64,000 nt of DNA from Clostridia bacterium (GCA_017416205.1 JAFQDC010000007.1:6022-70021); one strand, 5' to 3'. Positions 1,798 to 53,993 are shown, counted from the stretch's first letter. The notes: a model not told the origin generated them from the letters alone. Made by a program: numbers and translations.

Positions 1798-1829
1798 GCG
1801 ATTACGATTAACAAATGAGGTGTTTTTTT

Positions 1830-2609
1830 ATGTCCAAAAATCAAAATAATAATATTCCGTATACAGTTTCACAGAATTTTCTGACTTGTCGAAAAACCAT
1901 TGACCGATTGATACGAATAGCACGACTACAAAACAGCGATACCGTTTTGGAAATAGGCGCTGGAAAAGGCCATATAACCAATGCTTTATCCGATAAGTGC
2001 AAAAAAATAATATCTTATGAAATAGATAAGCATTTGTATGACCGCTTAAAATATCAGATTAGCAGTAATGTTTGTTTACGCCATGGCGATTTTCTGAAAT
2101 GTCGCCTGCCGCACGAACAATATAAAGTTTTTGCCAACATTCCTTTTTCAATTACAACAAGTATCATAAACAAACTAACAACTGCAAATCCTCTACCACA
2201 AGGAATGTGGGTGATTATGGAAAAAGGCGCGGCAAAACGTTTTTGCGGGAAGCCCAAAGAATCGTTGAATTCTTTACTTATTAAGCCGAAATATGATACA
2301 AAAATTGTATATCACTTTCGCCGTGAAGACTTTCACCCTGCACCAAGTGTAGATGTAGTCATGTTAGAATTCCGAAAGAAAGAGAAAGATGATGTGTCAT
2401 CTGTTCAATGGAATGACTACTGTATGTTTATTCAACACAGTATGAAATACGGTATTTTCGGAAAAAATGCGTTACTGACAAAAAAACAAATAGACACAGC
2501 CTTGAGATTGGAGGGCTTACCTAAGATAGTGCCATCGGATGAAATATTATATATCCAGTGGTTCTGTCTGTTTCGATGTTGGCTACGTTGGGGGAAACGC
2601 ACAAAATAA
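1830..2609 (+). CDS. erm: Erm-family 23S rRNA (adenine-N6) methyltransferase
   Basis: SQNFLT motif, SAM site LEIGAGKGHIT and NIPFSITT motif. About 259 aa, collinear with ErmB/ErmC as I remember them. GAGGTG at 1817-1822 lies 7 nt before ATG 1830. The track start at 1815 lacks an SD. Confidence 0.85.
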   Translation: MSKNQNNNIPYTVSQNFLTCRKTIDRLIRIARLQNSDTVLEIGAGKGHITNALSDKCKKIISYEIDKHLYDRLKYQISSNVCLRHGDFLKCRLPHEQYKVFANIPFSITTSIINKLTTANPLPQGMWVIMEKGAAKRFCGKPKESLNSLLIKPKYDTKIVYHFRREDFHPAPSVDVVMLEFRKKEKDDVSSVQWNDYCMFIQHSMKYGIFGKNALLTKKQIDTALRLEGLPKIVPSDEILYIQWFCLFRCWLRWGKRTK

Positions 2610-2827: not shown

Positions 2828-3754
2828 ATGTCTAACGTATTTGCCGAAAATTTAAGAAAGCTCCGACTTTCAAAAAAGCTCACGCAGGAGCAGGTTGCAG
2901 AACACCTCGGTGTTACAGTGCAGACAGTTTCGCGCTGGGAATGCGGCAATGCTCTTCCCGACGTTCTCAGACTTCCCGAAATAGCAAAGCTTTACTGCGT
3001 TACGGTTGATGATTTTTATAAATCAAATTCCATAGCATATGCAAATTATGCGGAGCGGCTTTTATCTGTTTATGAAAAGACAGGTCTACCTGAGGATTTC
3101 CTTGCAGCTGAAATTGAATTTCAAAAAATGATCAAGCTTGAAAACATGACAATGAGAGATATGTACAACTATGCAAATCTTAACGATCAGATGTATATAA
3201 ACTCTCAAAGGAAAGCTCTTGACTGGTACGATAAGATCCTTGCAAGAGATCATACAGAGGACCCACTCTCATACTATAAAGCACTTGACTTTAAAATAAG
3301 GATTTCGCACGAAAGCGGAGACGGATACGAAAAACTGATCCCTTATCTCAAAAAAAGAGTTGAAAGAGACAGAAACAATCCTAACGAATGGCAATCACTT
3401 TGCGAAGGTCTCTATTACTGTGAACGCTATGAAGAACTTGATGAAACTCTCAGAGAAGCGATCAAGCTTTTCCCCAACAATGGAACTCTTTATATTCAGC
3501 TTGCCTCAGTACACGAGCATTACGGTCGCTATGATGAAGCTATAAAGTGCTACGAGAACGCCGAAAAGCTTGATACCGAGAAGCACAACGAGATTTTCTG
3601 TAAAGCGGTCTCCTACGATATTTACATGGGTGAATATGAAAAATCATATAACACATGGCTGGAGCTTGCAAAGCTTTACAAAAACGAAGGACTTGACGTT
3701 GACGCAGAAATGGCTATGAGAGAAGCTGAAGCTGTAAAAACAAAAATCAGATAA
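2828..3754 (+). CDS. XRE-family HTH regulator with TPR-like C-terminal domain
   Basis: N-terminal HTH_3 signature LRKLRLSKKLTQEQVAEHLGVTVQTVSRWECG. About 240 aa of helical repeat follow (YYKALD, YIQLASVHEHYGRYDEAIKCYE). Confidence 0.75.
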   Translation: MSNVFAENLRKLRLSKKLTQEQVAEHLGVTVQTVSRWECGNALPDVLRLPEIAKLYCVTVDDFYKSNSIAYANYAERLLSVYEKTGLPEDFLAAEIEFQKMIKLENMTMRDMYNYANLNDQMYINSQRKALDWYDKILARDHTEDPLSYYKALDFKIRISHESGDGYEKLIPYLKKRVERDRNNPNEWQSLCEGLYYCERYEELDETLREAIKLFPNNGTLYIQLASVHEHYGRYDEAIKCYENAEKLDTEKHNEIFCKAVSYDIYMGEYEKSYNTWLELAKLYKNEGLDVDAEMAMREAEAVKTKIR

Positions 3755-4007: not shown

Positions 4008-6061
<2,054 letters not shown>

Positions 6062-6230: not shown

Positions 6231-6259
6231 TTGAAAAACAAATTATAATACGATATAAT
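6231..6259 (+). promoter_or_regulatory. sigma-A type promoter of the GTPase-NYN gene
   Basis: TTGAAA (6231-6236), 17-bp spacer, TATAAT (6254-6259). Lies about 33 nt upstream of the GTG start. Confidence 0.5.
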
Positions 6260-6291
6260 GAAAAAGTATATTATGGGAAGGAGGAAATGCT

Positions 6292-8877
6292 GTGAAAAAG
6301 AAGATCACAATAGGAATTTTAGCTCACGTTGATGCGGGTAAGACCACCCTCAGTGAAGCGCTGCTGTACGCATCCGGAAGAATACGTACCCTCGGCCGTG
6401 TGGACCATAAAAACACGTATCTTGACACGAATACCATTGAACGTGAGCGCGGTATCACTATTTTTTCAAAGCAAGCACGTTTTTCAAGCAAAAACTGCGA
6501 TTTCATCCTCCTTGATACTCCCGGTCACGTTGATTTTTCAGCGGAAACTGAGCGAACACTTTCCCTTCTTGACTACGCAGTGCTGGTCATCAGCGCCTCC
6601 GACGGCGTACAGAATCATACCCGTACTCTCTGGCAGCTGCTCGAGCACTATAACGTTCCTACCTTTATTTTTGTTAATAAATGCGATATTTCAATAAAGC
6701 TGAAGGAAGATATTGAAAAAGAGCTTTCGTGCATTCTTTCTCCTTTATGCGTTGGATTTTTAGAGCTTCAAAAGCGAGATGAACTGGAAGAAAAGTTAGC
6801 TTTCGTTCACGAGGATTTTATGGAAAGCTTTCTTTTGGGTGATGGTATTGACGACAGGGATATTGCATATCTTGTCAGCAGCCGTAAGCTGTTCCCTTGC
6901 CTGTTCGGCTCTGCTTTGCGAATGGACGGGATTGACTATTTGCTTAACACTTTAGATAAATACACACTCTCCCCTGTCTATGACAATGATATTTTTGGTG
7001 CGAAGGTCTACAAAATTTCGCGCATTGGTCAAACCAGACTGACTTATATGAAAATAACCGGCGGTACACTCTCCGCCCGCGACGAGATAAGCTATCTTTC
7101 CGAAGATGGCGTCCGTATAACCGAAAAAGTAAGCCAGATAAGGCTTTACTCAGGGGATAAGTTTGAACAGACTGACACCGTATCGGCAGGTGAGATCTGC
7201 GCTGTAATTGGCCTTTCTTCTTCCTACGTGGGTCAGGGCCTCGGACTTGAGCAGGATACTCAAAAGCCCTTACTTGAGCCTGTACTGTCCTATGCTATCA
7301 ATCTTCCGCCCGAGTGTGATACACGTGTATTCTTTCCAAAGCTTAAAGAGCTTGAGGAGGAAGAGCCTTCCTTGCACCTTATGTGGAACGATGAGCTTTC
7401 ACAGATCGAGGTTCGCCTTATGGGTGAGGTACAGACAGAGCTTATTAAAAGGCTGATAAGCGACAGATTTTCAATCGATTGTACTCTTGGCCAGGGTAAA
7501 ATATTATATAAGGAAAAGGCCGCAGGAAAAGCTATCGGTGTCGGTCACTTTGAGCCGCTACGCCACTATGCTGAGGTTCAGCTGCTTATTGAGCCTCAGC
7601 CTAAGGGTACGGGACTGATATTTGATACAAACCTGCCCGATAATATGCTTGACACAAACTGGCAAAGACTGATCCTTACCCATCTTTACGAAAAAGACCA
7701 CCGAGGTATTCTTACAGGAGCACGTCTCACTGATACGAAGATAACTCTTGTAGCAGGCAAGGCACATCTGAAGCATACCGAGGGCGGTGATTTCCGCGAG
7801 GCAACCTACAGAGCGGTAAGACACGGCCTTATGAAGTCGGGATGCACTCTTCTTGAGCCATATTACAAGTTCAGACTTGAAGTGCCCTCCTCTATGGTGG
7901 GCAGGGCTATGTCTGATCTGCAAGCAAGATCTGCAGATTTTGAGCTTGAGGATTCTGACACGGAAAATACCGTAATATGCGGAACAGCGCCTGTTGCAAC
8001 ACTTCACGATTATCCGCGTGAGGTGATCTCATACACCCATGGCAAAGGCAGACTTTTCTGTACATCAGACGGCTACGAGCCCTGCCACGATCAGGAAGAT
8101 ATTATTGCTGCCTCAGGCTACGATCCCGAGGGAGATATTGACAACCCTCCCCACTCTGTTTTTTGCGCACAGGGTGCAGGATTTACCGTACACTGGAGCG
8201 AGGTAGACAGCTACAAGCACCTTGAAGTCGATCTGAAAGATTCCGACGAAGCCATAGCAATTATACCAAAAGCTTCAACTCTTGCACGTAAATACAGCAT
8301 TAGCGATGAAGACCTTGAAGCAATAATGCTACGCACGTACGGTCCCATCAGGCGCAAGCGGTACAGTGAGCCAAAACAGATGTCCTTTGACAAAAAGGAT
8401 AAGCCACGTAAGTCAAAAGCTATACGCTCGCAAAGAAACATGGTAATCATTGACGGCTACAATCTCATATACTCTGACGATGTATTAAAAAGCACCGCGG
8501 ATTTCAGTCTTGAGAAAGCACGTGATGATCTTATGAATATACTCAGCAATTACGTTTCTTATACTAAAACTGAGCTGGTGCTTGTCTTTGATGCTTACTT
8601 AGTTGAGGACGGCAAGGGGACGGAATCTATGCACGATGGCTACAAGGTAGTTTATACCAAAGAAAATGAAACCGCTGACACGTATATTGAAAAATTGATG
8701 TATGATCTCGGTCCGGATTACAGTATACGAATGGTAACCAACGACAGGCTTTTACAGTTTTCAGCAGTACATTCAGGAGTTTCACGTATGACTGCTAAGG
8801 AATTCCTTGAAGAGCTTACACGCATCGGTAACGAAATAAACGAATTTGTACGTAAGCTTTCAGAATGTAAGAGTTGA
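6292..8877 (+). CDS. Tet(M)/Tet(O)-like translational GTPase fused to a YacP/Rae1-type NYN ribonuclease domain
   Basis: AGGAGG at 6279-6284, then a GTG start. G1 AHVDAGKTT, G2 RGITI, G3 DTPGH, G4 NKCD. The N-terminus reads like Tet(M). The C-terminal 145 aa carry IIDGYNLIY, LVFDAY, YTKENETADTYIEKL and VTNDRLLQ, as in B. subtilis YacP/Rae1. One uninterrupted 861-aa frame. Confidence 0.85.
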   Translation: MKKKITIGILAHVDAGKTTLSEALLYASGRIRTLGRVDHKNTYLDTNTIERERGITIFSKQARFSSKNCDFILLDTPGHVDFSAETERTLSLLDYAVLVISASDGVQNHTRTLWQLLEHYNVPTFIFVNKCDISIKLKEDIEKELSCILSPLCVGFLELQKRDELEEKLAFVHEDFMESFLLGDGIDDRDIAYLVSSRKLFPCLFGSALRMDGIDYLLNTLDKYTLSPVYDNDIFGAKVYKISRIGQTRLTYMKITGGTLSARDEISYLSEDGVRITEKVSQIRLYSGDKFEQTDTVSAGEICAVIGLSSSYVGQGLGLEQDTQKPLLEPVLSYAINLPPECDTRVFFPKLKELEEEEPSLHLMWNDELSQIEVRLMGEVQTELIKRLISDRFSIDCTLGQGKILYKEKAAGKAIGVGHFEPLRHYAEVQLLIEPQPKGTGLIFDTNLPDNMLDTNWQRLILTHLYEKDHRGILTGARLTDTKITLVAGKAHLKHTEGGDFREATYRAVRHGLMKSGCTLLEPYYKFRLEVPSSMVGRAMSDLQARSADFELEDSDTENTVICGTAPVATLHDYPREVISYTHGKGRLFCTSDGYEPCHDQEDIIAASGYDPEGDIDNPPHSVFCAQGAGFTVHWSEVDSYKHLEVDLKDSDEAIAIIPKASTLARKYSISDEDLEAIMLRTYGPIRRKRYSEPKQMSFDKKDKPRKSKAIRSQRNMVIIDGYNLIYSDDVLKSTADFSLEKARDDLMNILSNYVSYTKTELVLVFDAYLVEDGKGTESMHDGYKVVYTKENETADTYIEKLMYDLGPDYSIRMVTNDRLLQFSAVHSGVSRMTAKEFLEELTRIGNEINEFVRKLSECKS
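8437..8874 (+). other. NYN (YacP/Rae1-like) nuclease domain inside the 861-aa ORF
   Basis: Region from N716/M717 to the C-terminus. Conserved Asp positions are retained in DGYN, FDA, ETAD and TND. Preceded by a Lys/Arg-rich linker. Confidence 0.75.
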
Positions 8878-34436: not shown

Positions 34437-37400
34437 TCAGTTTTGTGCTGATTCTCTTCTCTTTTTTCTTCTGAGAGTTGTTGTCATAACACCGACACCG
34501 CTCACGAACAGAAGAGCAAACCACATCCAAAGTCCGGAGTCACCGGTCTGAGGAGCATTGGGGGTATCAGATGTACCGGGAGTTTCAGGACTTTCGGGAT
34601 CATCTGAAGGCTCTTCGGGAACTGATACTGTATTTTCTACCTCGTTAGTTGTATACGTATTCTTCCCTTCTGCTACCGTAGCCTTGTTTCTTACGGTAGC
34701 TTCAGCCACAGCATCAACCTTTACCTCAAATCCGACTGTAACAGTTTCGCCTGCACCTACTTCAAGAGTCCATGTTATAGCTCCATCGTCATAAATACCG
34801 CCGTTGTCCGCTGAGCCTTCAACGTATGTAGTATACTCGGGAACAGCATCTGTAATGACTACAGTTACAGTTTCATGAGAATTATTCTTATAGCTGATCT
34901 CGTACTTGAGAACATCTCCCGCATTAACTGACTCTCCGTCAATACTTGCGTCGGGAGCATCTTTCATAAATACGTTCTTTTCAACCTCGTCCTCAACTGT
35001 GTAGTTGGAAACCTCATTTGTAAGATAAGTATTTCTGCCCTCTCTGATCTCAGCCACATTCTCGATAGTTACGCTGCCAACGTTCTTAACTTCAACCTTG
35101 AAGTTAACGGTCACAGTTTCGCCTGCCTCGACGTCAAGAGTCCATGTGAGCATTCCGCCGCTATAGGTGCCACCGTTATCAGCAGAGCCATCAACGTAAG
35201 TTGTATACTCGGGGATAGCATCGGTAATTATAACGGATGCACTGTGAGGAGCACTGTTAGTATAGGTGATAGCGTACTGAAGAATATCTCCGGCATATAC
35301 TTTCTTTCCGTCAACACTAATTTCTGTGCTTTCGGGATAGAATACGTCCTTTTTAACCTCATCGTCCACAGTATAGTTAGTCACCTTATTAGTCGTATAG
35401 GTGTTTCTGCCCTCTCTGATCTCAGCTTCGTTTTCCACAGTAGCGTTTCCTGCATCCTCAACCTTTACGTTAAAGGATACTGTCACGCTATCACCTGCTT
35501 CCATGTCAAGGGTCCAGGTGATTTTACCGTCTTCATATACACCACTATGGGTAATTGTACCTTCAACAAGTGATGTGTGCTGAGGGATAGTATCAATAAT
35601 AGTTACTCTCGCTGCTTCTCTTGATACGTTCTTATAGAAGATAGAGTATACGATCTCATCGCCTGCATACACCTTTCTTCCGTCAATGCTTACGGAATCA
35701 TTGTCTGCAAATGCAACGTTCTTTTCAACCTCATCCACTACTGTATAGTTTGTTACTTCATTGGTTGTGTAGGTATTTCTGCCAACCTTCACATCAGCTG
35801 CGTTATTGATGGTTACAGCACCTACGGAATCAACAGTTACGTTGAATCTGACCTTAACAGTCTCACCGGCATCAACACGAAGCTTCCATGTTACTACTCT
35901 GTTACTGTATACACCGTCATTATCTGCAGAGCCTTCAACATAGGTCGTGAATTCAGGGAGTTCGTCTGTGATGGTTACATCTGCTGTTTCTCTTGAATTA
36001 TTGGTATAGGATATCTCGTATACAAGCTCATCACCTGTATATACCTTATTTCCGTCTATGCTTACCTCTGTATTATCAGCGAAGAATACATCCTTTCGAA
36101 CTTCATCCTCTGCGGTGTAGATAACGACCTTATTTGTAGTATAGGAATTTCTTCCCTCTCTGATCTCAGCTTCATTGCTGATCTCAACGTCTTTGGCTTC
36201 ATCTACGGTTACGTGGAAGGATACTGTTACGCTTTCGCCTGCCTCAAGTTCAAAGGTCCAGATAATATTTCCTTTCTCGTATACGCCGTTATGGCTTACC
36301 GTTCCGTCAACAAGAGTTGTATGCTCAGGAATAATATCTGTGATAGTTACTGTAGCCGCATCTCTGCCAACATTTCTGTAGTAAATTGAGTATACAAGCT
36401 CATCACCAGCATATACTCTCCTGCCGTCGAGACTGACTTCATCATTACCTGCAAGGCTTACGTCCTTATCAAATTCCTCTGTAACTGTATAGTTGATAAC
36501 CTCGTTTGTTGTATATATGTTCCTGCCTTCCCTAACTGTAGCAGTATTTACTATATCAACGTTTTCAACCTCATCTACTGTTACTCTGAAGGATACTGTT
36601 ACAGTGTCGCCTTCATCAACGTCAAGCTCCCATGTGATCATTCCGTTTTCGTATGCAGCATTGTGACTTGCTGAATCTTTAACGTATGTTGTATACTCAG
36701 GAACTGTATCTGTGATAGTTACAGTTGCTGTGTCAGTTGCATTATTAGTGTATATGATCTCATATACAAGCTCATCACCTACGCATACCTTATCTCCGTC
36801 TATGCTTACATCAGTGTTTTCAACAAAGAATACATCCTTGGAAACATCGTCCTTAACAGTATAGTTAGTTACCTCGTTTGTGGTGTAGGAATTTCTTCCC
36901 TCTCTGATCTCAGCCTTATTGCTGATCTCAATGCTTTCAACATTGTCTACCGTTACGCGGAAGGATACTGTTACTGTATCGTTTGCTTCAACCTCAAGTG
37001 TCCATACAATAACGCCGGCTTTATATTCGCCTCCCATGGAAGCAGAGCCTTCAACGTACGTTGTATGCTCAGGAATGCGGTCCGCGATATTTACTGTTGC
37101 CGTATCCTTGCCTGTATTCTCGTAAGAAATAGAGTATACAAGCTCGTCACCAACATAAACCTTTTCACCGTCAATATTTACGAACTCGTCGATTGCAAGG
37201 AATACTTCTTTGATAACCTCGTCCTTTACAGTATAGTTTGAAACCTCATTGGTTGTATAGGTGTTGCTTCCCTCTCTGATCTCAGCCTTGTTGCTGATCT
37301 CAACGCTTTCAACATTGTCTACCGTTACGTGGAAGGACACTGTTACAGCATCGCCCTTCTCAATGTCAAGAGTCCAGGTGATCGTTCCGTTTTCATATAC

Positions 37401-40400
37401 ACCGCCGTGGCTTGCAGAGCCTTCAACGTATGTTGTATGCTCGGGAACAGTATCTGTAATAGTAACGGTTACTGTTTCTTCTGATGAATTTTCATAGCTG
37501 ATAGTATAAACAAGCTCGTCACCTATGTATACCTTTTTATTATCTATACTTACGCTGTCATCAGATGCAAGGAATACGTTCTTCACAACCTCGTCCACTA
37601 CCGTGTAGTTAGTTACAGTGTTTGTGGTATATTCATTTGTACCGTCATTAACTCTTGCTGTGTTTTCGATTGTTTCTGCACCGAGATCGGCATCTACCTT
37701 TACTGCAAAGGTAACGATCGCAGTTGTCCACGCTTCAACGTTTTCAATGCTCCATACAACGTGACCGTTTTCAAATACACCGCCCATATCCGCGGAGCCT
37801 TCAACATATGTTGTAAACTCGGGGATCTTATCGGTAATTGTAATATCAGCGGGCTTATCAGATGCATTTATAAAGCTGATCTTATAGAGGAGCTCTTCGC
37901 CCGCGTATACCTTTTTACCGTTAATACTTACGGAATCGTTTTCAGGATAGAATACGTCTTTTTCCACAAGGTTTTCAACTGTATGATTTACCACCTCGTT
38001 TGTTATATATGTATTCACACCGTCACGTACTATGGCAGCATTATCTATGACAGCATCCGTTTCAGCTACTTCAACCTTGAAGGATACGGTTACGCTCTCA
38101 TCTGCCTTTACGTTGAGTATCCAGTTGATATGATCGCCTGCGTACTTTCCGTTATGGGAAGCAGAGCCATTTACGTAGGTTGTGTGCTCAGGAATCGCAT
38201 CAAGGATATCGGCAATTACGTCTGCTCCGGTATAGTTTGTGTAGGTAATACTGTAAGTAAGGATATCACCCGCATTTACCTTTTCTCCGTCGATAACGGT
38301 TGAGGTATCGCCTTCCTTATAAACTTCCTTCTTTGCTACATCATCAACTGCAGCATTTGTAAAGGATACGCTTTCATTGAGCTTAGCTTTTCCCCTAACA
38401 GTTTCGCCTGTTGCTGCATTGATAAGCATGATCTTAAGCTGACCGTCACCGCTGTCAGTTACGTATACTGCATACTTATGGTGCGTTCTGTCATATACGA
38501 TACCATCAATGGGGTCTGCCTCTGAATCCTCTGCAATTACGAAGAAATATGTTCCTGTAGAATTGAACACTCTTGCATCAAATTCAAATTTACCGTCTGC
38601 ATTCTTTTTACTGTCGAGGAGAATCGCGTTGCTGTTTGTAATATCAAAGGTATAGTCTGTTGCATAAAGATTGAATGTGAAATCACTGTCATTCAGCGTA
38701 GCACCCTCAAGAGTCTTTGTTCCATTAAATACAAGCTCTGCCGCATCAGCTTTATAGGTGTTTTCGAACTTGATATCTGCATTTGCAGTATCTGCAGATG
38801 CTGTGAGAACTCCGTTTGTATCGGTAACTGTTACTGTAACCGTTACCGGATGATCAACGCCATTGTATATCACTCCTGCTGCAGTACCGTCATTTTCTTT
38901 TACGGTATAGGTATACTCGCCTGCCGTTTTATACGTAATTGTACTGAAGGAGAAGGTACCGTCTGACTTATTGGTTACGGTCTCTATCTCTTCGTTTCCT
39001 TCATACAGAGTGAAGGAGAATTCTCCGGATCCAGGCGCACGGCCGTGAAGTATCTTTGTGCCGCCGATTGTATACTCAGTAGACCTTGCTTCATAGTGGT
39101 TATGATAGGTTACCACATTTGAGATTGCATCCTCAAAATACCTTACTGCTGTAAGTGTTCCGGTTGCAGGATCGTTTTCAACCTCTACAACAAGGTCGTA
39201 TACAGCAGGATCGTAGCTCATTCCGTTAAGCACGTACTTATTCGTTACTGCATTGTATACTGCACCCTCGGGAATATACTCTACGATATCAAATTCGTAC
39301 TTACCTACCTTATCAAAGGTAAGAACCTCATCAAAGTCTACGAAAAGAACATCACCGTTAAGATTATTTGTTCCCTTGAGAACATAATTCTCACGGTCAC
39401 CGTTATTATACACGTAGAATGTAAATTCATCTGCTTCAAGTTTTTTTCCGGTAAGCACTTTCATAACTGCACCGTCAAGATCTATTCTGGCAGAATCGGG
39501 AGTATAACTGTTTACAAAGCTTACCCTGCCCTTTGTTGCATCTGCAGGATCTACAGTTGCAGTTTCTTTATCATTGTTGGATTTTACCTTTTCAATGTCG
39601 AGAGCAGCTATAAGATCTCCGTTAGATTCTGTTACAGAAACCGTGATACGATATTCGGCATCGGAATAGCTCCATCCGCGATCTCCCTTATTCACCTCAG
39701 AGATCACATAATGGAATGTTCCGGTCTGTGTATATACAGAGTTGAATCTTGCAGCACCTGCAGCATCTGTGACCAGCTCAAAGTCGGGCTCATTTGCAGG
39801 GTTCAGGATATTCCATTCTCTGTCGGTCTCATATACATGGAATTCAAAGCCTGCCCCAGATACAGTAGTATCGCCTGAATTATTGATAACGTCTTTAATT
39901 ATATCTACACTTACAGGGGCTGTATGGTATGTATTCTTAAAAGTGACTTCAAATATTCCGTCATCTATTATATTCTCTCTCGCATCAGTTACCTTAGCAA
40001 CAAGCTGACCACCGTTATCGGTAACTGTTACGTCAAACGCATAAACAGTTCTGTCATAGGTTACGTTCTCAACGTTACCCTTGACTTCAATAACCTGATA
40101 GGAATGTGAGCCTACTTCAGAATATGTGATACCGGAAAGTACATCTTCGATCTTAAAGATCTTCGATCCATTTTCGTCTGCAGCATATTCTACCTTTGCG
40201 CTCTTTTCCGAGATGCTTTCCCAACTGCTTCCGTTCCACTTCTGAACTGCGAATGTGAACTCTCCGCCACTGTGACTGCCCTCTGCCTCAAATATCTTAG
40301 TTCCGTCGATATCCAGGTCAACAGTTGTTGCAAAAGGAGTATACTGATTGATAATAATTGCAGTTGCGCTTGCATCCTCGGGGATCACTACTGTATTATC

Positions 40401-43400
40401 AGTGTCAGCTGTTTCTCCGGAATGATTGCGCGTGCGGAAAGAAACATCAAAATACGCACCGGGATCAGATTCTGTCACAGTCACGTCAGTTCCCGAGGGA
40501 AGATTTATGATCTCAACAGTTTCTCTCGCCTTGATGCTGAATGTCATATTGCCATCAGCGTCAACTGTAACGGTTTTATCCTCTTTTTCAGTCTGCTTTA
40601 CTGTAAAGCTCTTTCCTGAAAGATCCCCGCCTACGTTTACCACGATCTCAAAAGCAGTGTCAAGAATGCTCTGCGGAATTGCGTGGTCGCTTGCAATCTC
40701 CTTTGTAATAAAGAGATTACCGTATTCGTTAGGAGCGTTTGTGACTGTTGCCTGAGCGAACTGTGCTACGGGGGAGCTCTCGTCAAGCACCTGTGAAAGA
40801 GTGGGAACCGTTACCGTAGAATCAGACAAGCTGTCTACTTTATAATAGTCGCCGTTGATAATCTCACCGATCTCACAAGCAGTTCCGCCGGGAATACCTG
40901 CTACGTATACAGTCTCCCCTGCCTTAAGCTCAACTGTAAGAACGTTATTCTCATAAGAAGAGATATCGCCTGTTACGTCATTTCCGTTTTCGTCCCATAC
41001 AACAGGATCTGCGACCACGCCATCAGGAACTGTAACGGTAAGTGAATAGGTATCATCTGCGTTTCCGATATTTTCAGTTACACTCTTTGTAAGCTTAATA
41101 CCTGTTTTGATTGCAACGTTTACTCTACCGTTGTTGCCAAGCCATACGACAACGCTGTTGCCGTTATGTATTTCGGCAGTTTCATGAGTGTATTCGGGAG
41201 TATAGCGCTGAGTTGCAGTTTCTGTAACATTGTACTCTTTTTCAACCGTCATATTATGAAGACGACTTGTACGGAGTGATCCTACACCCAGCAGTACATA
41301 AAGCTCAACTTCGGAATTATCTGCAAGGTATGCACCAAGCACCTTTTCAACTCTATCCTCGGGAATTGCAACACCCTTATCGGAAAGAGCGTATCCTCCG
41401 TTTTCGTCAGCATTTACATACTTTTCAGCTTTATTATCGTAAAATGCCGCAGACTCCTTAAGATATCCCCACTCAGTGTAAACAAGGTATGTAACCTCTT
41501 CTGCAGCATTTGCACTGTCATTAGCATCGGGAGTAGGGCGGGTATAGGTAACGTAAGTATATACCTTGTCGCTGTCAGCAGTTTTCTTATAATCATCATA
41601 GCTCATCCAGCTGAGATCATATTTATCATCATCCCATACGATACCGTATTCGTTATTCTCGGGGATAGAAACTGCAGAACCGTCCTCTTTATTTGTGATT
41701 TCTGTGAAAATGCCCTGATTGGACTGATGATAGTAATATCTGTTTTTCTCAGAGGGCTGGAAGCCAACGTGTGCATCACCCTCATAAACTACACCGTTAT
41801 CTGCAGGGCTCATAACACCGAAACGGTTACTGTAAAAGGATACGATTCCTTCGCTGTCATCGATGTAATCATATCCGCGGATCTTGGATACGTCCACTTC
41901 TCCGTTGGGAAGAAGAATATCTGAATCAATACCCACTGTGTAATAAACACGAAGAGGGTTATATGAAAACTCTGTGATCGTAGATGTCGTGTCATCTCCT
42001 ATTGTTTCAGATACAACTCTTTCAACTATAATAGGAAGGATCTCCTGATTGATCCTTATCTCAAGCTTCTGAGTTCCGTCATTCTGCTCTACTATAGAAA
42101 TAAGGATATCCTCGGAGGTATTCCATGCTTCGTTTGTTGTCGGGTTAGTACCAGTTGCAGTATCTACCTTATAAGTACCGTCTGCATTTTTGATAACTGC
42201 ATAGGAGGAACCGAACAGAGTTACGGACTGAATATCCTTTACCTCCATATGCTGGCCGATAAAGTCAACATAAATGAGAGGAGTATCGTCTATACCGGTT
42301 GCACCGTCAGTGGAGGTGCTGCTGGATATAGGATTGAATGCACCGCTTGAAAGCTCTTCATAGATCTGCTTGAAGGTACTTTCAATCTCTGCATTGGTAA
42401 CGTCATAATAGGTATCTGCATAATTGATGTTTTCTGCGATCTTTTCTGCTGTCACAGCACCGTTCTGAGTAGGATAATTATGGTTAAAGCTCCATCCGCT
42501 ATAGGTCACACTCTGGCCTGCTGCCCACTTTTGAAAATTCTTATACGCCTCACGGATCTCACGATCTGAGTTGCTTCCGTTGAAACCGTTAGCGCCGGCA
42601 GGGTCCATCATCAGCTGTGCTACCTTATTTGTGCTTACGTCAACACCTACAGTATATACTGTAACATCACTGTCATAGTTTGCTTCAATTTTTGTTTTAT
42701 TGTATGCAGCATTAAGCAGTGTGCTGAGATAAAGATTTCTGTTACTTACGCTTGTTCCGTCTTTATCGTTATGCTTTGAAATTTCATAAAAGCCTTCCTG
42801 AGCTGCGCGGTTAGCCTGTCCGTCAGTGAGAACGATTGCAACGGGAATACGCCCCTCGACATCAGCGGCATTTGCCAAAATATTAAAGCCTCTGTCTATA
42901 CCGGACTGAAGATTTGTTCCCTGCGTATATCCGCTGTCCTTGCCAAGAACGTTCTTGTCCTTATCGTAAGCTGTAATAACACCTGCACCGGCGGCTCCGT
43001 TATTGTAATAATTGGTACATACAAGATCGATTCCGTTATTGTATGCAGCAAGAGGAAGCAGTGTTTCACTATCCTTGTTGTACGTTACAATGGAAATGCG
43101 GATATTATCGAGTTTGAGCAGATCGTCGATCAGCGAATTCGCCGCAGCTATCGTTCGCTCAAGACGGGTAACGCCGTATCTGTCCTCATCGTCCATTGAC
43201 GTTGAAGTATCCAGCACAAGAACTACGTCCATGGGACCTGTGGATGTTACTGTGCTCTTTGATGTCATCGTTGATCCAAGTGCTGAGAATACTATCTGGA
43301 AGGATTCATCATCTTCAAGCTCAACCTTGAAGGAAGAATCTTCTTCGCCCTTATTATTCAGCACGGCAGTATCTCCGTTCTTAAAAACTGACTTATCTAC

Positions 43401-43607
43401 CCATACGCGTCCCGCATATCGGTTACCGTCTACGTCAGTTCCCATCATAGATTCCCACGTATGAGCACTTCCGGGGTCAACTACTGTTCCTACCACGGCA
43501 GTCGATGCTACCGAAACTGCCATAGCAGAAAGGGGAACGTAACTAAGTATCAGAGCAAGGCAAAGAAAAACGCTCATGATCCTTTTTGAAAGCTTTGTTT
43601 TCATCAT
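34437..43607 (-). CDS. giant cell-wall-anchored adhesin (signal peptide, vWA domain, Cna-B/pilin-type Ig folds, 10 DUF11-like repeats, sortase-type sorting signal)
   Basis: AAGGAGG SD. Signal peptide ..PLSAMA. MIDAS motif VLVLDTSTSM. Five pilin-type domains with an (E/D)FxFxxY core (GEFTFAVQ, DEFTFYVY, GEFSFTLY and similar). Ten 124-aa repeats. C-terminus APQTGD, a hydrophobic segment, then RRKKRRE. Confidence 0.9.
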   Translation of the reverse strand: MMKTKLSKRIMSVFLCLALILSYVPLSAMAVSVASTAVVGTVVDPGSAHTWESMMGTDVDGNRYAGRVWVDKSVFKNGDTAVLNNKGEEDSSFKVELEDDESFQIVFSALGSTMTSKSTVTSTGPMDVVLVLDTSTSMDDEDRYGVTRLERTIAAANSLIDDLLKLDNIRISIVTYNKDSETLLPLAAYNNGIDLVCTNYYNNGAAGAGVITAYDKDKNVLGKDSGYTQGTNLQSGIDRGFNILANAADVEGRIPVAIVLTDGQANRAAQEGFYEISKHNDKDGTSVSNRNLYLSTLLNAAYNKTKIEANYDSDVTVYTVGVDVSTNKVAQLMMDPAGANGFNGSNSDREIREAYKNFQKWAAGQSVTYSGWSFNHNYPTQNGAVTAEKIAENINYADTYYDVTNAEIESTFKQIYEELSSGAFNPISSSTSTDGATGIDDTPLIYVDFIGQHMEVKDIQSVTLFGSSYAVIKNADGTYKVDTATGTNPTTNEAWNTSEDILISIVEQNDGTQKLEIRINQEILPIIVERVVSETIGDDTTSTITEFSYNPLRVYYTVGIDSDILLPNGEVDVSKIRGYDYIDDSEGIVSFYSNRFGVMSPADNGVVYEGDAHVGFQPSEKNRYYYHQSNQGIFTEITNKEDGSAVSIPENNEYGIVWDDDKYDLSWMSYDDYKKTADSDKVYTYVTYTRPTPDANDSANAAEEVTYLVYTEWGYLKESAAFYDNKAEKYVNADENGGYALSDKGVAIPEDRVEKVLGAYLADNSEVELYVLLGVGSLRTSRLHNMTVEKEYNVTETATQRYTPEYTHETAEIHNGNSVVVWLGNNGRVNVAIKTGIKLTKSVTENIGNADDTYSLTVTVPDGVVADPVVWDENGNDVTGDISSYENNVLTVELKAGETVYVAGIPGGTACEIGEIINGDYYKVDSLSDSTVTVPTLSQVLDESSPVAQFAQATVTNAPNEYGNLFITKEIASDHAIPQSILDTAFEIVVNVGGDLSGKSFTVKQTEKEDKTVTVDADGNMTFSIKARETVEIINLPSGTDVTVTESDPGAYFDVSFRTRNHSGETADTDNTVVIPEDASATAIIINQYTPFATTVDLDIDGTKIFEAEGSHSGGEFTFAVQKWNGSSWESISEKSAKVEYAADENGSKIFKIEDVLSGITYSEVGSHSYQVIEVKGNVENVTYDRTVYAFDVTVTDNGGQLVAKVTDARENIIDDGIFEVTFKNTYHTAPVSVDIIKDVINNSGDTTVSGAGFEFHVYETDREWNILNPANEPDFELVTDAAGAARFNSVYTQTGTFHYVISEVNKGDRGWSYSDAEYRITVSVTESNGDLIAALDIEKVKSNNDKETATVDPADATKGRVSFVNSYTPDSARIDLDGAVMKVLTGKKLEADEFTFYVYNNGDRENYVLKGTNNLNGDVLFVDFDEVLTFDKVGKYEFDIVEYIPEGAVYNAVTNKYVLNGMSYDPAVYDLVVEVENDPATGTLTAVRYFEDAISNVVTYHNHYEARSTEYTIGGTKILHGRAPGSGEFSFTLYEGNEEIETVTNKSDGTFSFSTITYKTAGEYTYTVKENDGTAAGVIYNGVDHPVTVTVTVTDTNGVLTASADTANADIKFENTYKADAAELVFNGTKTLEGATLNDSDFTFNLYATDYTFDITNSNAILLDSKKNADGKFEFDARVFNSTGTYFFVIAEDSEADPIDGIVYDRTHHKYAVYVTDSGDGQLKIMLINAATGETVRGKAKLNESVSFTNAAVDDVAKKEVYKEGDTSTVIDGEKVNAGDILTYSITYTNYTGADVIADILDAIPEHTTYVNGSASHNGKYAGDHINWILNVKADESVTVSFKVEVAETDAVIDNAAIVRDGVNTYITNEVVNHTVENLVEKDVFYPENDSVSINGKKVYAGEELLYKISFINASDKPADITITDKIPEFTTYVEGSADMGGVFENGHVVWSIENVEAWTTAIVTFAVKVDADLGAETIENTARVNDGTNEYTTNTVTNYTVVDEVVKNVFLASDDSVSIDNKKVYIGDELVYTISYENSSEETVTVTITDTVPEHTTYVEGSASHGGVYENGTITWTLDIEKGDAVTVSFHVTVDNVESVEISNKAEIREGSNTYTTNEVSNYTVKDEVIKEVFLAIDEFVNIDGEKVYVGDELVYSISYENTGKDTATVNIADRIPEHTTYVEGSASMGGEYKAGVIVWTLEVEANDTVTVSFRVTVDNVESIEISNKAEIREGRNSYTTNEVTNYTVKDDVSKDVFFVENTDVSIDGDKVCVGDELVYEIIYTNNATDTATVTITDTVPEYTTYVKDSASHNAAYENGMITWELDVDEGDTVTVSFRVTVDEVENVDIVNTATVREGRNIYTTNEVINYTVTEEFDKDVSLAGNDEVSLDGRRVYAGDELVYSIYYRNVGRDAATVTITDIIPEHTTLVDGTVSHNGVYEKGNIIWTFELEAGESVTVSFHVTVDEAKDVEISNEAEIREGRNSYTTNKVVIYTAEDEVRKDVFFADNTEVSIDGNKVYTGDELVYEISYTNNSRETADVTITDELPEFTTYVEGSADNDGVYSNRVVTWKLRVDAGETVKVRFNVTVDSVGAVTINNAADVKVGRNTYTTNEVTNYTVVDEVEKNVAFADNDSVSIDGRKVYAGDEIVYSIFYKNVSREAARVTIIDTIPQHTSLVEGTITHSGVYEDGKITWTLDMEAGDSVTVSFNVKVEDAGNATVENEAEIREGRNTYTTNKVTNYTVDDEVKKDVFYPESTEISVDGKKVYAGDILQYAITYTNSAPHSASVIITDAIPEYTTYVDGSADNGGTYSGGMLTWTLDVEAGETVTVNFKVEVKNVGSVTIENVAEIREGRNTYLTNEVSNYTVEDEVEKNVFMKDAPDASIDGESVNAGDVLKYEISYKNNSHETVTVVITDAVPEYTTYVEGSADNGGIYDDGAITWTLEVGAGETVTVGFEVKVDAVAEATVRNKATVAEGKNTYTTNEVENTVSVPEEPSDDPESPETPGTSDTPNAPQTGDSGLWMWFALLFVSGVGVMTTTLRRKKRRESAQN
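34626..38345 (-). repeat. ten tandem coding repeats of about 372 bp (124 aa, DUF11-like)
   Basis: Each unit reads ..KDVF..D.VSIDG.KVY.GDELVY.I.Y.N....A.VTITD.IPE.TTYV.GSA...G.Y..G.I.W.L....G..VTVSF.V.V......I.N.A.IREGRN.YTTNEV.NYTV. NYTV-type junctions fall near 34998, 35372, 35745, 36115, 36487, 36858, 37230, 37600 and 37980. Confidence 0.85.
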
Positions 43608-46288: not shown

Positions 46289-46909
46289 TTACTTTTTATC
46301 GGATTCGATTATGTTGAGATTATCAGGATGAATGCCTGCCTGAGTATATACTATCTCGCTTATCTGTGCAACCTGAGTATCCATAAGACCGTCCGTTTTA
46401 ACTACGATGCTTGCCGTATCTCCGTTTACTATTGCCACGCACTCCTCAAACCCCTTTGCCATCACAAGGCTTTCAATATTTGATTCACACTCTATATATC
46501 CCGCTATCTTCTGTATTTCGCTGAGTGCCTCCTGCTTCATTGAATCGATGGCGGTACTGCTCTGGGCAACTCCCGTAAGTACCTCCATAGCCTCATCGCG
46601 GGCTTTTTTTCTTGACATTGTCATTTCTGCAAAGACGTCAACTGTCTCATCTTTAATATCCGCAACCTCCTGCTCTTCCTTTTCCTTATCGGCAATTGCC
46701 TGAGACACATCCTTAAGGTCAAGTGCTACATCAAGCTTGCCATCTGTTTTTTTGTCATTCTCCGGAAGGAGGACATAGTTCAGTATCACCGCTCCGAGCA
46801 AAACCGTTATGGCACAGGCGGCAACGATCGCCTTTTTATTGATCCTCTTTACCACCTTCAAGGTAACCTCCTTTACCTTTTCAAAAATTACTTTGATCTT
46901 ATCTTTCAT
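46289..46909 (-). CDS. spoIIIAH: stage III sporulation protein AH
   Basis: Last gene of the eight-gene operon. N-terminal TM segment, acidic linker and a YscJ/FliF-like C-terminal fold pattern. Confidence 0.75.
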   Translation of the reverse strand: MKDKIKVIFEKVKEVTLKVVKRINKKAIVAACAITVLLGAVILNYVLLPENDKKTDGKLDVALDLKDVSQAIADKEKEEQEVADIKDETVDVFAEMTMSRKKARDEAMEVLTGVAQSSTAIDSMKQEALSEIQKIAGYIECESNIESLVMAKGFEECVAIVNGDTASIVVKTDGLMDTQVAQISEIVYTQAGIHPDNLNIIESDKK

Positions 46910-46972
46910 AGGTATGTTCCTTTCTTATGTATAAATTCTTTAAATCATATTCACTTGTATCTCTCTGTATTC

Positions 46973-47449
46973 CTAACCGGAAACGGCTATCTTATTGACT
47001 GATATACCGAGAGCTGCCGCAATAAGCTCTGTTACTCTGTTCTTTACCTCTGTACTCTTTCCTCCGGTGCATACTACTGCAACGCCGCGAACCTTCGGGT
47101 ATAGCTCACTGATAAGGACAGGCTCTTCCCCGTCCTTTGAGCTGATTATCACGTATTCACTTGCCTTTTGCGTCCCGTTTTCACTTGTATTCTGTGCAAA
47201 TACGAATTCCTCCTGACTGTCAAGGGTGACAACGACCGTTGCTTTTCCCACACCTTGAGCAGACGAGATAAGATCCTCAAGCTTTTCCTCTATCCTTTCC
47301 GTGTAATAGGTAACGTCGCTTTCCTTTGTTTCTACATCTTCTTTTGGCTCGGGAACAAATCGGGCAAGGATCATCAGTAAAGCACCAACAATCGCACCAC
47401 CTATCAGAATATATCTTTTGATTTTTGAATCCTTGCCGCCTTCACTCAT
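46973..47449 (-). CDS. spoIIIAG: stage III sporulation protein AG
   Basis: TM segment, then EPVLISELYPKVRGVAVVCTGG...V.ELIAAALGIS..KI.V, characteristic of SpoIIIAG. Confidence 0.8.
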   Translation of the reverse strand: MSEGGKDSKIKRYILIGGAIVGALLMILARFVPEPKEDVETKESDVTYYTERIEEKLEDLISSAQGVGKATVVVTLDSQEEFVFAQNTSENGTQKASEYVIISSKDGEEPVLISELYPKVRGVAVVCTGGKSTEVKNRVTELIAAALGISVNKIAVSG

Positions 47450-47882
47450 CGCTTACCACCTGAATTTTCTTTTGAAATATGTTACTCAGTATCTCCCCCG
47501 CCTCCTTTTCATCAAATACAGCCTTATCGCAAAGCTCAAGTACGATATTTTCTATCTCCCCGGCATCTGAACAACTCACCTTTGCATTAATGGAAGAGAG
47601 CGGTATTTCATACATTTCCGAAAGGACTCTCCCCGCACTGTTTGCATAATATTCAGCCTCACGCTGACCTTTGTTTCCCTTCTCTGTTTCCACAGCATTC
47701 TGTGAAAAAACAAATGAACCGATGACCTGCATAAGGGGAGAAAGAATAGCTATAGCAACAGCCAGAGAACCGATAAAAGAAAGATATTTTCCAAGCTTTC
47801 CCTTTTCTCCGTCAGGAGAAAGTATCCGAACTACAGCGACAAAAATACCGGCGATGAGAATCCCCCACAAATACGTTCCCAT
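47442..47882 (-). CDS. spoIIIAF: stage III sporulation protein AF
   Basis: Operon position and size, two N-terminal TM spans. ATG 47882 is preceded by GAGGT. Confidence 0.7.
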   Translation of the reverse strand: MGTYLWGILIAGIFVAVVRILSPDGEKGKLGKYLSFIGSLAVAIAILSPLMQVIGSFVFSQNAVETEKGNKGQREAEYYANSAGRVLSEMYEIPLSSINAKVSCSDAGEIENIVLELCDKAVFDEKEAGEILSNIFQKKIQVVSDE

Positions 47883-47889
47883 ACATACC

Positions 47890-49026
47890 TCATACAAAGG
47901 ATATCGGAGTTTTGCAAAACAATCCGAGTGCAATTACGTACATTACGGCGCCGCCCGCACAGGTAGCAAGCAGCAACGTACATATTCCTTTACATTCCTC
48001 AAGAAGTTTGCTCTCTGTGATACAGCCAAGCACCTCTGCCATAGCTCCCGAAAAGCCTATGGCTATACGGCTCATCAGTATCACCGCAAAGGGAGCGAAA
48101 AAGGCAACGGCAATTGCCGCGATACCACCTATCCCACAGGCGTGCTTTATAATATCAAGGCTTGAAGAAAGAACAGAAAAGGAATCGGCAACAGCAGCAC
48201 CAACAAAGGGAAGATAATTACCGATAGCAAACTTTACAGTTTTACGAAAGAATCCATCCTGAGCCGCTCCGCCTGCTGATTGCAAGGACAGAACAAAAGT
48301 CATCAGAGTCATTACTGCTATAACGCCGCCCGTTACTATGCCTCTTATTGTTTTTGTCATATAAGCAACGCCCCTATCCCCTGTCACCACCGAAATAACG
48401 GCCAGAATGAACATTCCGTTGACGCATGGGGCAAGCACCTTTGAAAAAAGAGCTTCTCCAAAGCTGATCATCAGATTTAGTCCCGTTGCGCTGACGGCTG
48501 ATGCCGTCAGATTTCCCGATGATATATATACTGCTTCCATTGCAGGAACATACAGTAGCATCGTGGATGTCATAGTATCAAGGAGAGCGCAGGCTGTACC
48601 AAGTACCTTTTCCATTACTCCCCACATACACAGCGCCATACATAAAGACGCGCAAAAGGAAAATGCACTCTTTAGAGATGCTCCCGCTACGGTGTCGGCA
48701 AGCATAGAGAAAAGCGAAGAAAATATAATGGCAAACAGAAGCAGTGCCACGGTTTCAAGCGCAGGACCTGCCGCTTTTCCTATAGCATCCTTCACCTTCT
48801 CTTCAAAAAAGGCAACATCGTATTCTGAAATATCTTCACGACTTTCGGGCAGCTCCTCTTTTATTTCATCGGGAAGAGACTCAAAAAAATCGGAAACCTC
48901 GCCTTGTGTTTTTGATACTCCGCCATCCGAGAGCTCGTACTCATACACCTTGTCCGCAAATATCTCAACAGAAAGCAAAGATGCAATAAGGATCACGGCA
49001 AAAAAACAAAATAACGCCTTTTTCAT
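47890..49026 (-). CDS. spoIIIAE: stage III sporulation protein AE
   Basis: 378 aa, signal peptide plus about 7 TM spans. Operon position. Confidence 0.8.
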   Translation of the reverse strand: MKKALFCFFAVILIASLLSVEIFADKVYEYELSDGGVSKTQGEVSDFFESLPDEIKEELPESREDISEYDVAFFEEKVKDAIGKAAGPALETVALLLFAIIFSSLFSMLADTVAGASLKSAFSFCASLCMALCMWGVMEKVLGTACALLDTMTSTMLLYVPAMEAVYISSGNLTASAVSATGLNLMISFGEALFSKVLAPCVNGMFILAVISVVTGDRGVAYMTKTIRGIVTGGVIAVMTLMTFVLSLQSAGGAAQDGFFRKTVKFAIGNYLPFVGAAVADSFSVLSSSLDIIKHACGIGGIAAIAVAFFAPFAVILMSRIAIGFSGAMAEVLGCITESKLLEECKGICTLLLATCAGGAVMYVIALGLFCKTPISFV

Positions 49027-49415
49027 TTGTTTATCAGCTCCTTTGCCAGAACCATCAGATCACCTATAAGAGGAATACTGAGAGCGATCAGCTCACATTT
49101 TGCAAAGGCTTCAACAGCTCCTCCGATTATCTCTTCTCCTGCTTCACGGCAAAGTGAAGCCGTCAGTCCTGCGATATATGCAATTCCAAGTGCGCGGAAC
49201 AATACTTTTGCATATTCATAAAAATCGCTTTGACGGCAAACTTCTATTATCTGAGAAGCTGCCCCTGAAAGGCTGTTTTCGAAGGAAAACAAAAGCAAAG
49301 TTAAAACAGTGACAGCAGCGCACGCCAGAGCCGCGCCCTTATGCTTTTCTTTTAGAATGACAGAGCCCACAGCCCCCAAAAGTGCTATGCCCGATATGCG
49401 AACGATCTCTGACAT
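49023..49415 (-). CDS. spoIIIAD: stage III sporulation protein AD
   Basis: 130 aa, 4 TM spans. 4-nt overlap with AE and 1-nt overlap with AC. Confidence 0.8.
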   Translation of the reverse strand: MSEIVRISGIALLGAVGSVILKEKHKGAALACAAVTVLTLLLFSFENSLSGAASQIIEVCRQSDFYEYAKVLFRALGIAYIAGLTASLCREAGEEIIGGAVEAFAKCELIALSIPLIGDLMVLAKELINK

Positions 49416-49609
49416 TACAGCTCAAACACATTTCTGACTGCCGTGAAAAGCTCTTCTATCTGCCCCACAAGCATGATCAGAACAATGATGATGCCTACCA
49501 CCGTTACAAGAGTTGCCTGCTCGTCTCTCCCCGTTTTCTGCAGTATCTGATTGGCAACTGCAACTATCATACCAACTCCCACAGTTTTTAAAAGAAGTGA
49601 AATATCCAT
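49415..49609 (-). CDS. spoIIIAC: stage III sporulation protein AC
   Basis: 64 aa, MDISLLLKTVGVGMIVAV..QIL...GRDEQATLVT. AAGGATGGG SD. The longer track ORF is an upstream extension. Confidence 0.8.
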   Translation of the reverse strand: MDISLLLKTVGVGMIVAVANQILQKTGRDEQATLVTVVGIIIVLIMLVGQIEELFTAVRNVFEL

Positions 49610-49625
49610 ATTCCCATCCTTTGCT

Positions 49626-51010: not shown

Positions 51011-51077
51011 TTACCTTCTGTGATACCTGATCACTTACAGTAATGTATACTCGGACAAAGATAAATGTATTCCGAAA

Positions 51078-52160: not shown

Positions 52161-52288
52161 ATCGTTTCTTCCTTTCTGTTTTTAGCATTATATGCTTGCA
52201 AATAATTTTTGCCATTGCCAAGGATTACCTCAAACACCGACAAAAAGCATCCCTTTCTCAGAGTATAATCTCAATATTGAAAGCTGAG

Positions 52289-53137: not shown

Positions 53138-53146
53138 GGAGGAACA

Positions 53147-53875: not shown

Positions 53876-53925
53876 TATATTTTCGGGTTTTCGGTCAAAA
53901 TATCGAAACTTTTTTCCAAATGCTA

Positions 53926-53954: not shown

Positions 53955-53993
53955 TCTTTGTACTGTAAAAATAACCTCAAGGAGAATAATAAA

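Follow-up and report, generated by a model that had tools for sequence, protein, structure and literature searches.

We analyzed a 64,000-nucleotide (nt) stretch of DNA from a Clostridia bacterium (GCA_017416205.1, JAFQDC010000007.1:6022-70021), hereafter called the window, with all coordinates counted from its start. At 6292..8877 on the plus strand, the open reading frame (ORF) listing, Pfam and homologue searches identified a complete coding sequence of 861 amino acids (aa) plus stop codon, in which a Tet-like translational GTPase (trGTPase) is fused to a nuclease domain of the NYN_YacP family, to which Rae1 of Bacillus subtilis belongs. A preliminary description of this DNA, made from the sequence alone, had proposed one uninterrupted 861-aa frame with a single strong Shine-Dalgarno sequence, and both were borne out: the ORF is unbroken, starts with GTG, and is preceded at 6279..6284 (+) by AGGAGG, 7 nt before the start codon. 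An ATG at 6287, close to the GTG, is out of frame. A sigma-70-type promoter-like site (TTGAAA-17-TATAAT; 6231..6259, +), recognized by its consensus match only (11 of 12 positions), lies ~33 nt upstream of the start codon and implies a short, unstructured 5' untranslated region. Upstream of the gene we found no Rfam match, leader RNA, attenuator or leader or upstream ORF, which sets it apart from inducible tet(M), erm and ARE-ABCF genes. The fusion gene is chromosomal and free-standing, and apparently constitutive.

The preliminary description had also argued against two genes merged by error, and inspection of the sequence upstream of Met717, where the nuclease domain begins, revealed no GGAGG-like or Shine-Dalgarno-like site. 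Seven contigs, which stem from at least 5 independent samples and assemblers, yielded a product of exactly these 861 aa, and many clusters of homologues (at least 150, see below) share its length and architecture. A merged gene, a frameshift or an assembly artefact was therefore excluded; the gene is real and intact and encodes one polypeptide.

Domain organization of the fusion protein

As the preliminary description had anticipated, hmmscan found PF00009-type GTP_EFTU, EFG_III, EFG_IV, EFG_C and NYN_YacP in one chain, and these matches are far past the level of chance; the GTPase and NYN motifs that it quoted were likewise all present where it had placed them. The G domain (residues 3 to 225; 6298..6966, +; GTP_EFTU, 8e-50) carries AHVDAGKTT at residues 11 to 19 (G1, AHVDAGKT), RGITI at 53 to 57 (G2), DTPGH at 75 to 79 with the putative catalytic His79 (G3) and NKCD at 129 to 132 (G4), together with a reduced G'-like helical insert at residues ~138 to 196. 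Domain II is a predicted beta-barrel (residues ~246 to 315; 7027..7236, +), with sub-threshold Pfam matches only (EF-G_D2, GTP_EFTU_D2) and an all-beta AlphaFold 2 (AF2) model whose predicted local distance difference test (pLDDT) values are ~75 to 90. Domain III (residues 329 to 400; 7276..7491, +; EFG_III, 4e-07), domain IV (residues 420 to 516; 7549..7839, +; EFG_IV, 3e-12) and domain V (residues 520 to 601; 7849..8094, +; EFG_C, 6e-19) follow in order. Alignments to TetO, TetM, EF-G and the family revealed two family signatures in the tip loops of domain IV, GVGHFEPLRHYAEV (residues 416 to 429) and AHLKHTEGGDFR (residues 491 to 502), the Tet counterpart being YYSPVSTPADFR. Within the second, H492, K494 and H495 are near-invariant in the family alignment.

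Downstream of domain V lies a family-specific conserved extension (residues ~598 to 645; 8083..8226, +), recognized by family conservation and AF2, which has the pattern PCH...GYD...NP..SVFC.HGAG..V.W.EV...H, is predicted to form a helix, a beta-hairpin and a second helix, and gave no Pfam match even at E=10. Its folded part (residues 598 to 641) has pLDDT values of ~70 to 84 in the full-length model and drops to 59 when the extension is modelled alone, and because of this drop we read the extension as packing against the GTPase body. We also observed that C598, C625 and H643 are almost invariant and that H599 and H627 are usually kept (H627 is replaced by Gln in the window protein), so that these residues could form a putative metal-binding site. 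The extension is followed by a flexible tether (residues 646 to 716; 8227..8439, +), delimited by AF2 and composition, with an acidic start, two low-confidence helices (661 to 683) and a Lys/Arg-rich disordered stretch (684 to 715) that includes the basic segment RRKR...SQR (687 to 715). Tether pLDDT values fall below 50 at residues 651 to 662 and 684 to 713. Among 100 family members the tether measures 60 to 103 aa, with a median net charge of +5 over the final 35 residues. The chain ends with the NYN_YacP (Rae1-type) endoribonuclease domain (residues 717 to 861; 8440..8874, +), which was assigned by Pfam and by comparison with PDB 5MQ8 and 5MQ9. PF05991 (NYN_YacP) matched residues 718 to 857 with 125.7 bits against a gathering score of 24.6 (E, 2.4e-36), and the domain contains IIDGYN (719 to 724, with D721-G-Y-N724), VFDAY (765 to 769, with D767), ETAD (793 to 796, with T794-A-D796) and TND (816 to 818, with D818).

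The AF2 model of the whole protein has a mean pLDDT of 76 and shows a five-domain body like that of EF-G, a disordered tether and an NYN fold predicted with confidence (residues 715 to 860), so that the factor half is predicted to have the five-domain architecture and fold of the EF-G/EF2 family. A Foldseek search of the PDB returned as top matches only EF-G, EF-2 and TetM-type factors (E ~1e-48 to 1e-41), the best of them ribosome bound, and no solved trGTPase-NYN fusion.

Relationship of the GTPase half to tetracycline ribosomal-protection proteins

The closest solved relatives of residues 3 to 598 are TetO (244 bits) and TetM (236 bits), each aligned in a single stretch, whereas EF-G scored ~210 bits in two stretches; the GTPase half is thus nearer to Tet(M)/Tet(O) than to EF-G, as had been suggested from its N-terminus. 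The best NCBIfam model was tet_protect (NF012153), yet the score of 402.5 bits reaches only about half of its curated cutoff (775), and with every model specific to one Tet type the protein fell far short of the cutoff (NF033148, 273 versus 1100; Otr(A), 299 versus 900). Identity to TetO is ~30%.

The differences extend to the part of Tet proteins that acts on the drug. Loop III of Tet domain IV (TetM L505-Y-Y-S508-P509-V510), whose Pro509 contacts C1054 in the tetracycline site, dislodges the drug. This loop reads GLYYSPVSTPADFR in TetO and TetM, GSYHEVDSSEMAFK in EF-G and GKAHLKHTEGGDFR in the window protein, where the aligned segment is GKAHLKHTEGG versus GLYYSPVSTPA in TetO and TetM; the Tet motif YSPV(S/T)P is missing, and AHxKHT(E/Q/D)GGDFR is kept family-wide in its place. 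Loop I of domain IV is likewise family specific, as described above. Moreover, the alignment with TetO and TetM ends at approximately residue 598, residues 598 to 645 being without counterpart in the aligned part of TetO, and the C-terminal helix needed for TetM activity is replaced by an unrelated conserved module of ~50 aa. Since the score is half of the cutoff and the loop III motif is replaced, these comparisons indicate that the GTPase half belongs to a sister subfamily of the Tet proteins and is no bona fide tetracycline ribosomal-protection protein.

Relationship of the nuclease half to Rae1

The NYN half matched B. subtilis Rae1 (5MQ8/5MQ9) with an E value of 6e-21 and ~36% identity over 140 residues. 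As expected from the preliminary description, the acidic active-site positions are kept: D7 and D81 of Rae1, which are both replaced in the published catalytic-dead mutant (D7N D81N), correspond to D721 and D796 of the window protein, and D767 and D818 are also conserved. The stand-alone protein of ~170 aa in a gltX-cysES-mrnC-yacO-yacP context that is typical of the family was not what we found here, where the neighbors encode GAPDH, helix-turn-helix (HTH) regulators and hydrolases; within the 64-kb window there is neither a second NYN gene nor an mrnC-rlmB-sigH region.

The current picture of Rae1 bears on how the fusion might work. The model of 2017, in which Rae1 cleaves mRNA in the ribosomal A site, was withdrawn by its authors in 2025 (Deves et al.), and the cut site has been mapped to the side on which the mRNA leaves the stalled ribosome (its tail side). 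According to Tetreault et al. (2026 preprint), Rae1 generates substrates of transfer-messenger RNA (tmRNA) on collided ribosomes; the same authors state that no structure of ribosome-bound Rae1 exists and that the interaction is transient. Experiments on NYN_YacP proteins have revealed translation-dependent mRNA cleavage only, and a role on rRNA has not been reported.

Distribution and conservation of the fusion family

An exhaustive HMMER search over 1.84 billion cluster representatives, whose counts are lower bounds, recovered at least 150 clusters at 50% identity with the same architecture. All of the matches listed had E <= 4e-177, and almost all of them were 830 to 1000 aa long and aligned to query residues ~3 to 855 with 39 to 54% identity. 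At least 120 clusters have the same length and architecture at 81 to 98% identity, and their source names are Clostridia, Oscillospiraceae or Ruminococcaceae. Finished genomes of cultured species are among the carriers, and cultured members such as R. albus, E. rectale and C. thermocellum are 46 to 48% identical to the window protein. Fusions of this design are common among Clostridia of the gut and among those that degrade cellulose, and the family is old and large.

Conservation was assessed in alignments of 47 and 53 members (~40 to 50% identity) and in a set of 100 members. The G1 to G4 motifs, including His79, were invariant across the 47- and 53-member alignments, and so were D721, Y723, N724, D767, D796 and D818, the acidic residues being kept also among the 100 members. 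This invariance of GTPase motifs and nuclease residues alike indicates strong purifying selection on both of the predicted enzymatic halves.

Two side observations concern individual matches. Six HMMER representatives of 616 to 720 aa (rows P0247, P0254, P0257, P0258, P0264 and P0265) aligned only to query residue ~624 to 647, with 46 to 48% identity; these may represent either additional orthologues that lack the nuclease or gene calls that were truncated. A full-length fusion homologue with 45% identity was found on a 118-kb contig (CAVJLG010000039.1) binned as Barnesiella intestinihominis (Bacteroidota), which is probably a mis-binned Clostridia contig.

The architecture was already known in print. 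Additional file 8 of Atkinson 2015 (BMC Genomics 16:78) names ten fusions of this kind in Clostridia, from R. albus 7, E. eligens, E. rectale, B. proteoclasticus, C. cellulolyticum, C. lentocellum, C. phytofermentans, C. thermocellum and two D. hafniense strains, and Matelska et al. 2017 (NAR 45:6995) described TetM–NYN_YacP fusion proteins in Clostridia, noting HTH genes near some of the fusion genes and leaving the role open. Thus, the statement in the preliminary description that no characterized example was known is literally true, but the novelty that it implied fails; the window gene adds a member to an uncharacterized, widespread family. The window protein shares with the published fusions the domain order, the domain IV signatures, the conserved extension, the basic tether and the four NYN aspartates. 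It comes from an uncultured, Oscillospiraceae-like Clostridia metagenome-assembled genome and forms its own branch, approximately equally distant from each published member (46 to 48% full-length identity to each of the nine Atkinson 2015 members that were aligned). It differs from them in the Gln at position 627 and in a short C-terminus, which ends ~10 to 30 residues before that of most members.

Public labels of family members include "NYN domain-containing protein," "GTP-binding protein," "elongation factor G," "translation factor GTPase family protein," [quoted passage not shown] and "Tetracycline resistance protein TetM from transposon Tn916." These inconsistent labels are a likely source of false resistance-gene calls, and misannotation in the abundant gut Lachnospiraceae and Oscillospiraceae can inflate resistome counts. 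A similar caution applies to Rae1 itself, since a census by hidden Markov model (HMM) without a length filter would score fusions of 850 to 1000 aa as plain Rae1 in Clostridia; we observed that a Rae1 distribution survey of 2026 (PMC13622287) used hmmsearch at E<1e-10 without such a filter.

Unfused orthologues of the GTPase half

Members of this GTPase subfamily that lack the nuclease are found in Lactobacillaceae (many species, chromosomal) and in a Neobacillus. The version in Neobacillus cucumis has 648 aa, and that of L. salivarius lies on the megaplasmid pMP118 (WP_164920261.1). These proteins, labeled "translation factor GTPase family protein," share the domain IV signatures and the conserved extension with the fusions and end exactly after the extension, without tether or NYN domain and with no adjoining nuclease gene. 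Identity is 41 to 52% between unfused and fused members and 52 to 60% among fused ones. Because the same subfamily occurs both fused and unfused, the clostridial protein may be taken as a Rosetta-stone fusion, from which the GTPase subfamily and Rae1 are predicted to be functionally linked and which makes the unfused GTPase a candidate partner of Rae1 in other Firmicutes.

The four unfused loci that we compared share no neighbor. On pMP118 (NC_007930.1, 226083..228474), the unfused gene is divergent from an rpsN (S14) paralogue and a "putative metal homeostasis protein" gene. This single observation might link the subfamily to alternative or zinc-limited ribosomes; the rpsN paralogue is missing at the three other Lactobacillaceae loci.

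Genomic neighborhood

The window is an ordinary chromosome segment of a spore-forming, cellulosome-bearing Clostridia organism. The fusion gene is flanked upstream by GAPDH and two regulator genes and downstream by alpha/beta-hydrolase genes, and the gene calls within ±10 kb include no mobile-element genes. The two regulators are XRE-type proteins with HTH_3 and TPR Pfam matches (2828..3754, +, and 4008..5027, -); the second shares 4 nt with the stop end of the GAPDH gene (5024..6049, -), an arrangement that suggests an operon of GAPDH and regulator, transcribed divergently from the fusion gene. Further upstream, at 1815..2609 (+), lies a 264-aa homologue of Erm-type 23S rRNA adenine methyltransferases (RrnaAD, 6e-41), which scored 209.9 bits on the NCBIfam model Erm23S_rRNA_broad against a cutoff of 212. 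Its position, 3.7 kb upstream of the fusion gene, is kept in 5 of 5 related contigs.

That the host is a spore former follows from the sporulation cluster at 46289..55673, in which gene calls identified the spoIIIA operon (46289..50995, -), a SpoIIGA peptidase with a sigma factor (sigE; 52196..53875, +), ribosomal protein L31 (53994..54212, +) and the HflX GTPase (54288..55673, +). A cellulosome is indicated in the same way by proteins with dockerin domains that are encoded in other parts of the window. Between the spoIIIA operon and the YajC region we observed a giant ORF of 3056 aa (34437..43607, -), whose matches to VWA, DUF7601, FctA and CLIPPER repeat domains suggest a surface adhesin or a pilin-like protein.

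Associations with phages, defense systems and mobile elements were considered and rejected. PADLOC returned no match for the fusion gene, and full-length matches were found on chromosome-like records only. Two GenBank "Bacteriophage sp." UNVERIFIED virome scaffolds (MT835563.1 and MT835514.1) contain full-length fusion homologues, but MT835563.1 encodes an NAD(P)H-hydrate dehydratase, an enolase-superfamily enzyme and a citrate transporter, and because of these bacterial metabolic genes it represents bacterial DNA and not a phage.

Discussion

The reading that we consider most likely, and to which we give about an even chance, is that the fusion protein is a self-delivering version of the stalled-ribosome mRNA surveillance nuclease Rae1 and no antibiotic-resistance determinant. 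In such a mechanism, the GTP-bound factor half would use the factor-binding site to dock on a ribosome that has stalled or collided and is not serviced by EF-Tu or EF-G, and the long tether with its basic end would keep the NYN domain in reach of ribosome-associated mRNA. The nuclease would then cut the mRNA in the manner of the free Rae1 of B. subtilis; the truncated message would be resolved by trans-translation through tmRNA, and GTP hydrolysis would lead to release of the factor. The preliminary description had likewise proposed a GTPase-delivered, ribosome-targeted RNase, which stands as a reasonable reading, but its case for a common site of action of the two halves on the ribosome no longer holds because the A-site cleavage model has been withdrawn.

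Several points weigh against the proposal of a self-delivering Rae1. The factor-binding site lies on the A-site or mRNA-entry side and the Rae1 cut on the exit side, and on one ribosome a tether of ~70 aa may not span the distance between them. The proposal may therefore require that the factor occupy the rear ribosome of a collided pair (disome), where the entry channel meets the exit of the leading one. The trGTPases of B. subtilis 168 are EF-Tu, EF-G, IF2, LepA and TypA only, so that Rae1 works there without a Tet-like paralogue and the GTPase is no general requirement for Rae1. The 13 fused loci compared in Lachnospiraceae and Oscillospiraceae share no neighbor, and neither at these loci nor at the four unfused ones does a conserved neighbor point to tmRNA or rescue pathways (at the fused loci, MATE efflux, adjacent in 3 of the 13, and GreA genes occur at a few Lachnospiraceae loci only). 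Moreover, our search of the full-text literature found no experimental study of any member of the fusion family, and from homology we infer ribosome binding, the GTPase and nuclease activities and the substrate (mRNA or rRNA); the ribosome state recognized and the involvement of tmRNA are inferred as well.

A more specific proposal, which we hold only tentatively and regard as less probable than delivery as such, is that the Tet-sister GTPase subfamily, defined by GHFEPLRHYAEV, AHxKHTEGGDFR and the extension, is dedicated to sensing ribosomes that have stalled or collided and either delivers Rae1 or licenses it, being fused to it in Clostridia and acting in trans in Lactobacillaceae and some Bacillaceae.

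Two alternatives, both of them improbable and to a similar degree in our judgment, keep the two activities and assign them another role. In the first, the NYN domain acts on rRNA once the GTPase has docked on a ribosome or on a late intermediate of ribosome assembly, and the action serves maturation, quality control, or ribosome inactivation and turnover in starvation or sporulation. The host does form spores, yacP genes are classically found in the mrnC-yacO(rlmB)-yacP operon together with rRNA-processing enzymes, and YacP proteins were first predicted to process rRNA or tRNA; in addition, a tether anchored at the factor-binding site would probably lie nearest to rRNA elements, and its basic end could bind rRNA. 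However, the sole experimental data on NYN_YacP proteins concern mRNA, as noted above, and the fusion gene has no conserved linkage to rRNA-processing genes. In the second, the GTPase subfamily has a ribosome function of its own, such as rescue or remodelling, which is the same in the unfused proteins of Lactobacillaceae, and the NYN domain is an opportunistic add-on without specificity for stalls or collisions. That unfused orthologues are widespread, conserved and without adjacent nuclease would fit this idea, and a long, variable tether suits loose co-localization over precise geometry. Nevertheless, the fusion has been kept with invariant catalytic residues throughout the divergent clusters of the family, suggesting that the two activities are functionally coupled.

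A far weaker case can be made that the protein confers tetracycline resistance by ribosomal protection, its RNase domain contributing a new mechanism, as suggested in Atkinson 2015 and implied by some RefSeq annotations. Its attractions are the best matches of the GTPase half, namely Tet(O)/Tet(M) and the tet_protect HMM, the resistance labels of some members, the Erm-like methyltransferase upstream and the MATE efflux genes at related loci. Against these stand the failed Tet cutoffs and low TetO identity, the exchange of the drug-dislodging loop III for another, family-invariant motif, the replaced TetM C-terminal helix, the chromosomal location of a core-type gene in housekeeping and sporulation surroundings without mobile-element genes or an attenuator leader, and the age and conservation of the family across Clostridia. 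We therefore consider this explanation very unlikely, and the role in tetracycline or antibiotic stress that the preliminary description had entertained is not favored. Finally, the chance that two adjacent genes were merged by a sequencing or assembly indel is negligible, given the identical protein on independent contigs, the missing internal Shine-Dalgarno sequence and the hundreds of full-length homologues, finished genomes included.

If the fusion does deliver Rae1, it would represent a natural covalent handle with which Rae1 could be trapped on the ribosome by a non-hydrolysable GTP analogue such as GDPNP or GDPCP, so that the recruitment of Rae1 to stalled or collided ribosomes becomes directly testable and a first structure of that complex could be obtained.

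Comparison with known systems

Like Rae1 of B. subtilis, the window protein has the NYN_YacP fold, the D-G-Y-N motif and all four acidic residues. Rae1, however, is a free protein of the mrnC-yacO-yacP operon that reaches ribosomes by transient interaction, whereas the window domain is the C-terminus of an 861-aa protein, covalently tethered to a trGTPase and encoded by a gene that stands alone. With Tet(M) and Tet(O) (PDB 3J9Y, 4V6V), the factor half shares the five-domain EF-G-like plan, the reduced G' insert and the conserved G motifs; it differs in its overall divergence, its scores below all curated Tet HMM cutoffs, its loop III, its C-terminal extension and its location off mobile elements.

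Parallels in function may lie with ribosome-associated decay in other organisms. The SMR nucleases SmrB and Cue2 are recruited via collision interfaces or ubiquitin. Hbs1-Dom34, Ski7 and GTPBP1 are trGTPases that connect stalled ribosomes to mRNA decay, Ski7 and GTPBP1 recruiting the exosome non-covalently. To our knowledge, none of these, nor NONU-1, is a covalent fusion of a trGTPase to an endonuclease. The logic that SmrB in E. coli, Cue2/NONU-1 in eukaryotes and these trGTPases would share with the clostridial protein is that a sensor of the ribosome state brings or activates an RNase on the stalled or collided ribosome, after which rescue follows. If the tentative sensor proposal is true, the fusion would be a bacterial GTPase-gated mRNA-surveillance nuclease, comparable in function to the eukaryotic trGTPase-coupled decay factors.

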